Source: a virus
Lineage: Duplodnaviria; Heunggongvirae; Uroviricota; Caudoviricetes
IMG/VR virus record: IMGVR_UViG_2690316325_000003
Reading direction: 5' to 3' (one strand)
Length of the DNA: 10,693 nucleotides
The position numbers and the translations under genes are program-made. This document shows, piece after piece, positions 9,943 through 10,693 of the stretch. The notes beneath the pieces are model-generated. The model was not told the origin of the DNA. It was given only the letters and a program-made list of their open reading frames with translations, and did not search any database. Each line of letters starts with the position of its first letter. The first letter of the stretch is position 1.

Positions 9943-10290
9943 GTGGAAGAAGAAATCTTCACTCGTGAAGAAGCTGCGTCGTATCTGAAGGTAGACAAAG
10001 GCACTATCACACAGTGGATACGAAGTGGACGACTTCAGGCCGCAAAGATAAATCCAGATAAACCTAAAAGTCCATATCGCATTTGCAAGTCAGACTGCAT
10101 TGCGGCGCTTAAGTCTGTGAGACACAATAGCGCGGTGAATGCGGTTGATGTGCAGGAGGTTAAAGCATGTCAATCAAACTACGCGGTGGCACGTGGCACT
10201 GCGATTTCGTCGCGCCAGATGGATCAAGAGTTAGACGCTCTCTTGAAACATCGGACAAAAGGCAAGCGCAAGAACTTCACGATCGTCTAA
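9943..10290 (+). CDS. xis: Excisionase-like HTH DNA-binding protein
   Basis: Segment FTREEAASYLKVDKGTITQWIRSGRLQAAKI is a typical excisionase/MerR-type helix-turn-helix; immediately upstream of int; likely GTG start 9943 (track start 9871 has no RBS). The frame runs on to 10290, overlapping int by ~124 nt. Confidence 0.55.
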   Translation: MEEEIFTREEAASYLKVDKGTITQWIRSGRLQAAKINPDKPKSPYRICKSDCIAALKSVRHNSAVNAVDVQEVKACQSNYAVARGTAISSRQMDQELDALLKHRTKGKRKNFTIV

Positions 10291-10619
10291 AAGCAGAAGC
10301 GTGGAGAGTAAAAAATCTCGGGGAATCACCGAAAAAGCTATTCAAGGAAGCCTGCATACGGTGGCTGCGTGAGAAATCGGATAAGAAGTCCATTGATGAT
10401 GACAAGAGCATTATATCGTTCTGGATGTTGCACTTCAGAGAAACCATTCTCTCAGACATAACAACAGAAAAAATAATGGAGGCGGTAGACGGGATGGAAA
10501 ACCGCCGCCATCGCCTGAACTGGGAAATGAGCCGGGACAGGTGTTTGCGGCTTGGCAAGCCAGTGCCGGAGTATAAACCAAAGCTGGCAAGCAAAGTGTC
10601 AACGACGGATGAAAAGTGA
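10167..10619 (+). pseudogene. int: Tyrosine integrase, N-terminal fragment only (truncated)
   Basis: Strong RBS aggagg; residues 1-143 (MSIKLRGGTWHCDFVAPDGSRVRRSLETSDKRQAQELHDRLKAEAWRV...) align from the start with DLP12/phage-21-type IntD as I recall it; the reading frame enters the right repeat at codon 144 and stops 7 codons later, so the catalytic domain is missing. Confidence 0.8.
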
Positions 10620-10693
10620 TCCACTTATATCTCCACCAACGGCCCAATATTGATCCACCGTTTTACTCAGGATTAGCTTCAGCTATAACCCCG

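Follow-up and report, generated by a model that had tools for sequence, protein, structure and literature searches.

The question at this locus is whether the two edges of a prophage fragment are boundaries of the element or boundaries of its assembly. The stretch analyzed (10,693 nt; the window) carries lambdoid early genes and ends on both sides in the same perfect repeat; an integrase gene is cut where one repeat arm begins, and cII ends beside the other. The window is very probably a complete short-read contig, which holds the early-left arm of a thrW lambdoid prophage between two inverted copies of IS100kyp.

Gene content of the prophage arm

The features are given below as coordinates, strand and description, with the basis of the assignment in brackets.

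1-97, plus strand: terminal 97 nt of IS100kyp, istB-proximal end (IRR side), from a copy situated left of the window (matches 10597-10693 in reverse complement at 100%)
98-99, no strand: two phage spacer bases, GG when read on the minus strand, that separate the IS end from the stop of cII and mark the insertion site within the cII-O spacer (alignment)
100-399, minus strand: cII, complete, 99 aa, stop at 100-102 (ORF; PF05269 Phage_CII on the same gene in L005)
538-738, minus strand: cro, 66 aa (PF09048 Cro)
839-1552, plus strand: lambda-type cI repressor, 237 aa (HTH_3 and Peptidase_S24)
1560-1997 and 1984-2355, plus strand: two overlapping ORFs between cI and N (phrog_5893, phrog_6136)
2857-3240, plus strand: N antiterminator, 127 aa (PF25694 N_peptide)
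after N: cIII/kil (listed among the genes of the arm)
5430-6128, plus strand: Rad52/Erf-type annealing protein (PF04098), first gene of the recombination module 5430-6599
6138-6599, plus strand: SSB (PF00436), second gene of this module
6615-7082, plus strand: cysteine-rich ORF, 155 aa, between ssb and the anti-RecBCD gene (phrog_2340, endonuclease, E = 4e-39; without a Pfam match)
downstream of SSB in gene order: anti-RecBCD protein and Ead/DUF551 proteins (domain calls)
9317-9484: 55-aa ORF, the site of a further IS100kyp end in sibling isolates (L063)
9871-10290, plus strand: excisionase-like HTH_17 protein, 139-aa ORF overlapping the start of int (PF12728, E = 1.1e-08)
10167-10596, plus strand: 5' 430 nt of int, i.e., 143 codons and the first base of codon 144, covering the N-terminal DNA-binding region only (alignment)
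10597-10619, plus strand: IS-derived tail of the chimeric ORF, which completes codon 144 and continues with STTDEK and TGA (sequence)
10597-10693, minus strand: terminal 97 nt, istB-proximal end, of a second IS100kyp, inverted with respect to the left copy; the contig ends inside it

Judged by its gene content, the window represents an early-left arm of 10.5 kb from a mosaic lambdoid prophage, in the gene order cII-cro-cI-N-recombination genes-xis-int'. Among sequenced phages, HK106, mEp234, HK97 and HK75 each match 31-41% of its length with an identity of 96-98%. In relatives, the counterpart of cII is annotated as a CII family regulator, and an excisionase-like gene is likewise found upstream of the intact int. 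The two overlapping ORFs occupy the slot between cI and N which, in lambda, is that of rexAB; the second of them (1984-2355) is predicted to form a coiled coil, has a hydrophobic C-terminus and gives weak XhlA/hemolysin-like matches. The ORF at 6615-7082 resembles an inserted gene for a homing-type nuclease. No RNA genes were found when the window was scanned with Rfam and for tRNAs, and PADLOC gave nothing convincing for those ORFs in the window which have no assigned function.

Identity of the terminal repeat

The repeat consists of the arms 1-98 and 10596-10693, is perfect over 98 nt, and is inverted, not direct, with both arms touching the edges of the window. A perfect repeat of this length is far beyond chance. 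When the right end was searched by megablast against 5,426 complete E. coli genomes, 6,037 places in 3,053 of these were hit, at which the istB end of an 'IS21-like element IS100kyp' is annotated. The element is multicopy, with as many as 25 places in a single genome. The 97 nt in the window match the annotated IS100kyp ends at 97/97 positions for one copy (L002) and at 96/97 for another (L001). Complete IS100kyp, fetched from these two genomes, has a length of 1,954 bp and extends from TGTCAACGACGG... to ...CGTTCGTGACA; it is surrounded by a target duplication of 6 bp (TTACCG) in L001 and of 5 bp (ACAAA) in L002. Of the two genes typical for the IS21 family, istA encodes a DDE transposase and istB an AAA+ helper. 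Besides IstA and IstB, members of this family are characterized by terminal inverted repeats made of repeated binding sites, by 5-bp target duplications and by the absence of a strong target specificity (PMC10122671).

TG...CA termini and a match to members of the IS21 family were both found here and, by sequence identity, the repeat is the istB-proximal tip of IS100kyp. The true terminus of the element reads TGTCAACG..., so that the IS covers 1-97 and 10597-10693 (97 nt per arm), taking in approximately the last 31 nt of istB in each copy. The G at position 98 and the G at position 10596 are native phage bases on either side, and the length of 98 nt is coincidental to that extent. The arms are identical to annotated E. 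coli copies over the terminal 97 nt and share the terminus beginning TGT..., whereas the window shows the tips only, and istA/istB as well as the opposite ends and target duplications of both copies fall outside it; complete copies with istA and istB were seen only in other genomes. Since both arms represent the same istB-side end, the segment in between is flanked by two IS100kyp copies that are inverted relative to each other.

Breakpoints at cII and int

The left breakpoint was determined by alignment with three intact relatives, which read TGAGG|TCATTAC... where the window reads TGAGG|TGTCAAC.... Homology to the relatives runs through G99 and G98, and beyond TGAGG they proceed toward the replication gene while the window enters the IS. 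The alignment bears out the initial annotation in placing the repeat just past the cII stop, at the point where lambdoid relatives go on into replication genes. The distance of one base given there is refined in that the IS itself starts 2 nt after the stop codon, G98 being native.

At the right breakpoint, the native sequence ...GCAAAG|GAACGAAGACG is replaced by ...GCAAAG|TGTCAACGACGG in the window. The DNA of int is near-identical to two intact int genes up to G10596 and unrelated to them past this base.

The sequence at 10580-10596 (CAAAGCTGGCAAGCAAAG, the 16 nt before the IS) resembles positions 3001-3016 of L002 (AAAGACTGGCCACAAA), the flank of a conserved chromosomal IS100kyp site carried by approximately 419 E. 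coli genomes, through which megablast extends. This 16-nt likeness is probably due to chance. A target-site preference of IS100kyp was considered and dropped, as five flanks were compared and gave no consensus.

The truncated integrase

The int ORF in the window (10167-10619) encodes 150 aa. Its first 143 residues are identical (143/143) to those of an intact integrase (386 aa) from E. coli SBF22 and are followed by the seven foreign codons VSTTDEK and a TGA stop. Codon 144 is split by the IS between its first and second base, which converts the native GGA to G|TG. The chimeric product has been deposited as CTY25980.1 and, from a second isolate, as CTZ29117.1. Alignment of the fragment with full-length integrases confirmed the breakpoint, with homology being lost exactly after G10596.

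In the intact protein, the catalytic domain PF00589 covers residues 184-353, and R214, H313/R316 and Y348, assigned by position to the R...HxxR...Y signature, are all located past residue 143. The 150-aa product has no PF00589 match and is a gene fragment, not a functional tyrosine recombinase. Since the catalytic domain lies beyond the break, the int gene of the window is, as predicted from its sequence, certainly unable to encode an active integrase. Hence, the cut after codon 143, the seven foreign codons and the missing catalytic domain were all described correctly in the initial annotation. Its statement that the element cannot excise by its own integrase stands on the lost catalytic domain, unless a compatible Int is supplied in trans.

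The designation 'IntD-like' is right at family level: the intact allele has 54% identity to K-12 IntD over 379 aa (E = 1e-153) and 55% to the Int of the P22-like phage ST64T, while the Int of phage HK446 is the closest characterized integrase (99.7%). The homology of the intact allele to the IntD-P22-HK446 group extends over the full length. Compared to the thrW integrases of P22, DLP12 (IntD) and HK446, the N-terminal 143 aa are those of an intact 386-aa Int, but the gene in the window is a 5' fragment fused to seven IS codons, and the catalytic domain is missing from the contig.

Origin of the contig ends

An exact look-up of the chimeric 150-aa product showed that the window corresponds to the full length of the draft contig CYEA01000056.1 (10,693 bp) in the E. 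coli assembly GCA_001283905.2. In a de Bruijn assembly, a unique segment beside a collapsed multicopy repeat keeps k-1 repeat bases at its ends, and the last k-mer of a unique node must hold one unshared base. The overhangs fit k = 99. For this value, 98 shared bases are predicted in the window because the last k-mer needs one unshared base, and 97 nt of IS plus the shared G are found; in a related contig (L063), 98 nt of IS are predicted because its flanks share no base, and 98 nt are found at both ends. In agreement with a much smaller k, Logan contigs (k = 31) end 27-31 nt into the IS, among them the contig L006 from run ERR137824, which was assembled independently, contains the int|IS junction and ends 27 nt inside the IS.

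We infer that the 98-nt repeat is the k-1 overhang of a k = 99 assembly graph, that the inner edges of the repeat are the IS insertion points, and that the outer edges are assembly breaks and not biological boundaries. The contig stops in the IS because short-read assemblers break inside multicopy elements. The repeat length and the edges of the window are accounted for by a collapsed-repeat break of this kind, and no difference from such breaks was noted. The initial annotation took the edges of the repeat for prophage boundaries made by deletion, which is unsupported: the window is the whole draft contig and the repeat a terminus of IS100kyp (1,954 bp, multicopy), and therefore these 'prophage boundaries' are assembly boundaries.

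The Logan contigs (k = 31) of the isolate also break at about 9463-9495 of the window, where L065 extends as far as 9467 and L006 begins at 9463. This break falls on a terminator-like hairpin (GCCGCCTGATGGCGGTTTTTT), which suggests that the hairpin sequence is repeated elsewhere in the genome, e.g., in another prophage.

Sister isolates and order of the insertions

A sister contig, CYBU01000029.1 (L060; 46,115 bp), was retrieved by look-up of a rarer protein of the window. It is 100.000% identical to window positions 1-10596 (0 mismatches in 10,596 nt) and starts with 134 nt of IS100, whose join to cII falls on the same base as in the window. At the right breakpoint, it has the native GCAAAG|GAACGAAGACG and continues with an intact 386-aa int (end at 11364), a tRNA-Thr(CGT) (thrW; 11379-11454), proA, proB, phoE, crl, frsA, gpt and pepD. 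As int adjoins thrW-proA-proB in this sister, the prophage is placed at thrW. The right breakpoint, which had been taken for a boundary of the prophage at int, is instead the point at which an IS recently entered a normally integrated prophage, with int-thrW-proA to the right of the breakpoint in the sister.

The exact cII allele was found in 23 contigs from several projects, all of which stop shortly past cII, after about 30 nt in Logan contigs and 98-136 nt in others; L043 has the identical join. The chimeric Int, on the other hand, occurs in only three contigs (about three samples). Because an otherwise identical sister combines the IS100|cII join with an intact int, the cII-side IS100 is lineage-wide and the insertion into int was added recently. 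By this comparison of sequences, the cII-side IS100kyp was already carried by the ancestor of the lineage, and the int copy was gained afterwards and is present in few isolates. Furthermore, the 100% identity of the arm to siblings with intact int indicates a very recent insertion into int rather than a long decay.

In four samples, represented by L063 (JHQX01000060.1 of GCA_001265155.1), the sequence is 100% identical to window positions 1-9369 and then enters a further IS100kyp end (9370-9468). This end is located inside the 55-aa ORF 9317-9484 and is inverted with respect to the cII-side copy, and the contig is IS-bounded at both ends. From these sequence comparisons, IS100 appears to be actively hopping within this prophage arm.

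In the order of events, a first IS100kyp inserted 2 nt past the cII stop, in the cII-O spacer, and is shared by the whole lineage. A second copy inserted later between bases 1 and 2 of int codon 144. The split int leaves the N-terminal 143 residues plus seven IS-encoded residues without a catalytic domain, and the prophage should be unable to make its own integrase. The cII-side IS would part the replication and late genes from pR. By analogy to the general lambdoid gene organization, we infer that the pR operon is interrupted by the IS between cII and the replication gene, which would leave the prophage doubly crippled; the element is most likely locked in.

Far-side junctions and alternative rearrangements

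For simple insertions, the junctions on the far sides of both IS copies can be predicted. On the int side, ...CACCGTTCGTGACA + (G)CAAAG + GAACGAAGACGCGG... is expected and, on the cII side, ...GTGACA + (C)TGAGG + TCATTACTGG.... In such junctions, CACCGTTCGTGACA should be followed within 3-9 nt by GAACGAAGACGCGGCATC (int) or by TCATTACTGGATC (cII), with a direct duplication of 5-6 bp (CAAAG or GCAAAG and TGAGG or CTGAGG, respectively). Either junction is absent from the 5,426 complete E. coli genomes searched, and the near- and far-side junction patterns gave 0 matches in JGI metagenome contigs and GTDB representative genomes. In addition, far-side int ORFs were predicted across the istA end of IS100, a duplication of 3-9 bp and the 3' part of int for every start codon, and looked up as exact sequences. 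None of the 10 ORFs predicted from the lineage's own allele has an exact match in a collection of 15 billion proteins, nor are exact matches on record for the chimeric ORFs predicted from three common alleles. For the generic 228-aa int fragment of the lineage allele, an unrelated metagenome contig is the sole source on record. Generic 228-aa fragments were also considered as a far-side product and rejected, since they stem from other events (IS66, IS3-type, IS600-like, IS629-like, another IS100 site, or Ns in scaffolds). A literature search with the run and assembly accessions found nothing. The 3' half of int that is missing from the window is present in the intact int of the sister; no far-side int ORF is on record for the isolate itself.

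That the standard far-side junction is missing from the assembly would fit a deletion on the int side, for which it is mild evidence. In such a scenario, DNA on the outer side of one or both copies was lost, either because IS100 copies recombined with each other or through an IS-mediated adjacent deletion, and an IS-bounded remnant remains; the loss would comprise the 3' half of int, possibly with thrW-proAB, on the int side, and O, P and the late genes on the cII side. We consider this, for either or both sides together, a serious but rather unlikely alternative. No predicted far-side int product with the lineage allele is on record for the isolate, though its near-side chimeric product is, and an undisturbed simple insertion should probably have left such an ORF annotated in GCA_001283905.2. 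The sequencing project appears well covered, because fragments from its other isolates are on record (CTV73223.1, CUA51816.1). However, this evidence is solely negative, and an exact-match look-up fails on an unforeseen start codon, an SNP or a scaffold N. Moreover, in the identical sister the chromosome to the right of int runs on without interruption for at least 35 kb, so that the loss would have to be large and remove proBA, and at least two events are needed where a simple insertion needs one.

The segment between the inverted IS100 copies might also have been inverted, or be invertible, through duplicative inversion from the cII-side copy or homologous recombination between the two. All four IS-flank junction sequences would then be the same as for simple insertion, and short-read junctions cannot tell the arrangements apart. 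The two copies are indeed inverted with the same istB end facing inward, and the independent second copy at window position 9370 in the siblings is likewise inverted with respect to the cII-side copy, which suggests local hopping from a resident element. Nevertheless, two of two insertions in the same orientation are expected by chance in one case out of four, and the missing far-side ORF is explained no better than by simple insertion. An inversion is regarded as improbable.

Still more doubtful is the extension of this idea that the cII-side IS100kyp repeatedly seeds inverted copies a few kb away (9370, 10597) by intramolecular duplicative inversion, giving an invertible or composite-transposon-like cassette. 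If true, a 9-10.5-kb cassette would unite a lambda-type immunity region (cI/cro/cII) with a Rad52/SSB/anti-RecBCD recombination module. In the siblings, the segment is found in its native prophage context, with no sign of movement as a composite transposon.

Finally, assemblers can generate perfect inverted repeats exactly at both contig ends, but an artefact (a chimeric contig or palindromic end, with int really intact) is essentially refuted by the sequence records: the int|IS100 junction occurs in an independent Logan assembly of ERR137824 and likewise in another NCBI assembly (CTZ29117.1), 23 contigs of several projects contain the cII|IS100 junction, and the repeat is a bona fide IS terminus.

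Integrase disruption in related prophages

Breaks in the same int family were compiled from contigs which carry 228-aa C-terminal fragments (L007-L042; codons ~108-157, equivalent to window positions 10488-10596 and further). In public assemblies, the gene is broken independently by IS100 at codon 128, by an IS66-type element at codon 129 (including complete genomes), by an IS3-type element at codon 112, by an IS600-like element at codon 125 and by IS629-like elements at codons 137 and 157. Judged from these sequences, IS disruption of thrW-prophage integrases is commonplace.

Several contigs share an int breakpoint at codon 108 beside unrelated phage DNA. Scaffolds from three projects (L017 at ~1145, L022 and L023) contain N runs at int nucleotide ~393 in the form GGCTT-NNNN-AAGCC, which split the annotated gene and create a spurious 228-aa 'fragment'. 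Such an N run probably hides a collapsed IS, as the IS66-type insertion maps there.

IS-disrupted, locked-in cryptic prophages include DLP12 and the serotype-converting remnants at thrW of S. flexneri. The prophage described here resembles such locked-in cryptic prophages of E. coli and Shigella in that the same int family is broken by many IS elements, but differs in that the rest of its early-left arm is intact and 100% identical to siblings with intact int.

An IS-truncated prophage int at a contig end is a known and well-understood phenomenon. For the reading of draft genomes, the locus is a caution: where a draft contig ends on both sides in a perfect inverted repeat and genes are 'cut' at the inner edges of this repeat, the pattern is the standard footprint of a collapsed multicopy IS and is no evidence of a deletion or an element boundary. 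With respect to the biology of these prophages, the locus offers another example of IS expansion, in which the integrase is inactivated, while the replication and late genes would be uncoupled and the prophage locked in place. The siblings supply a clean before-and-after pair, which is useful in dating the insertion into int.
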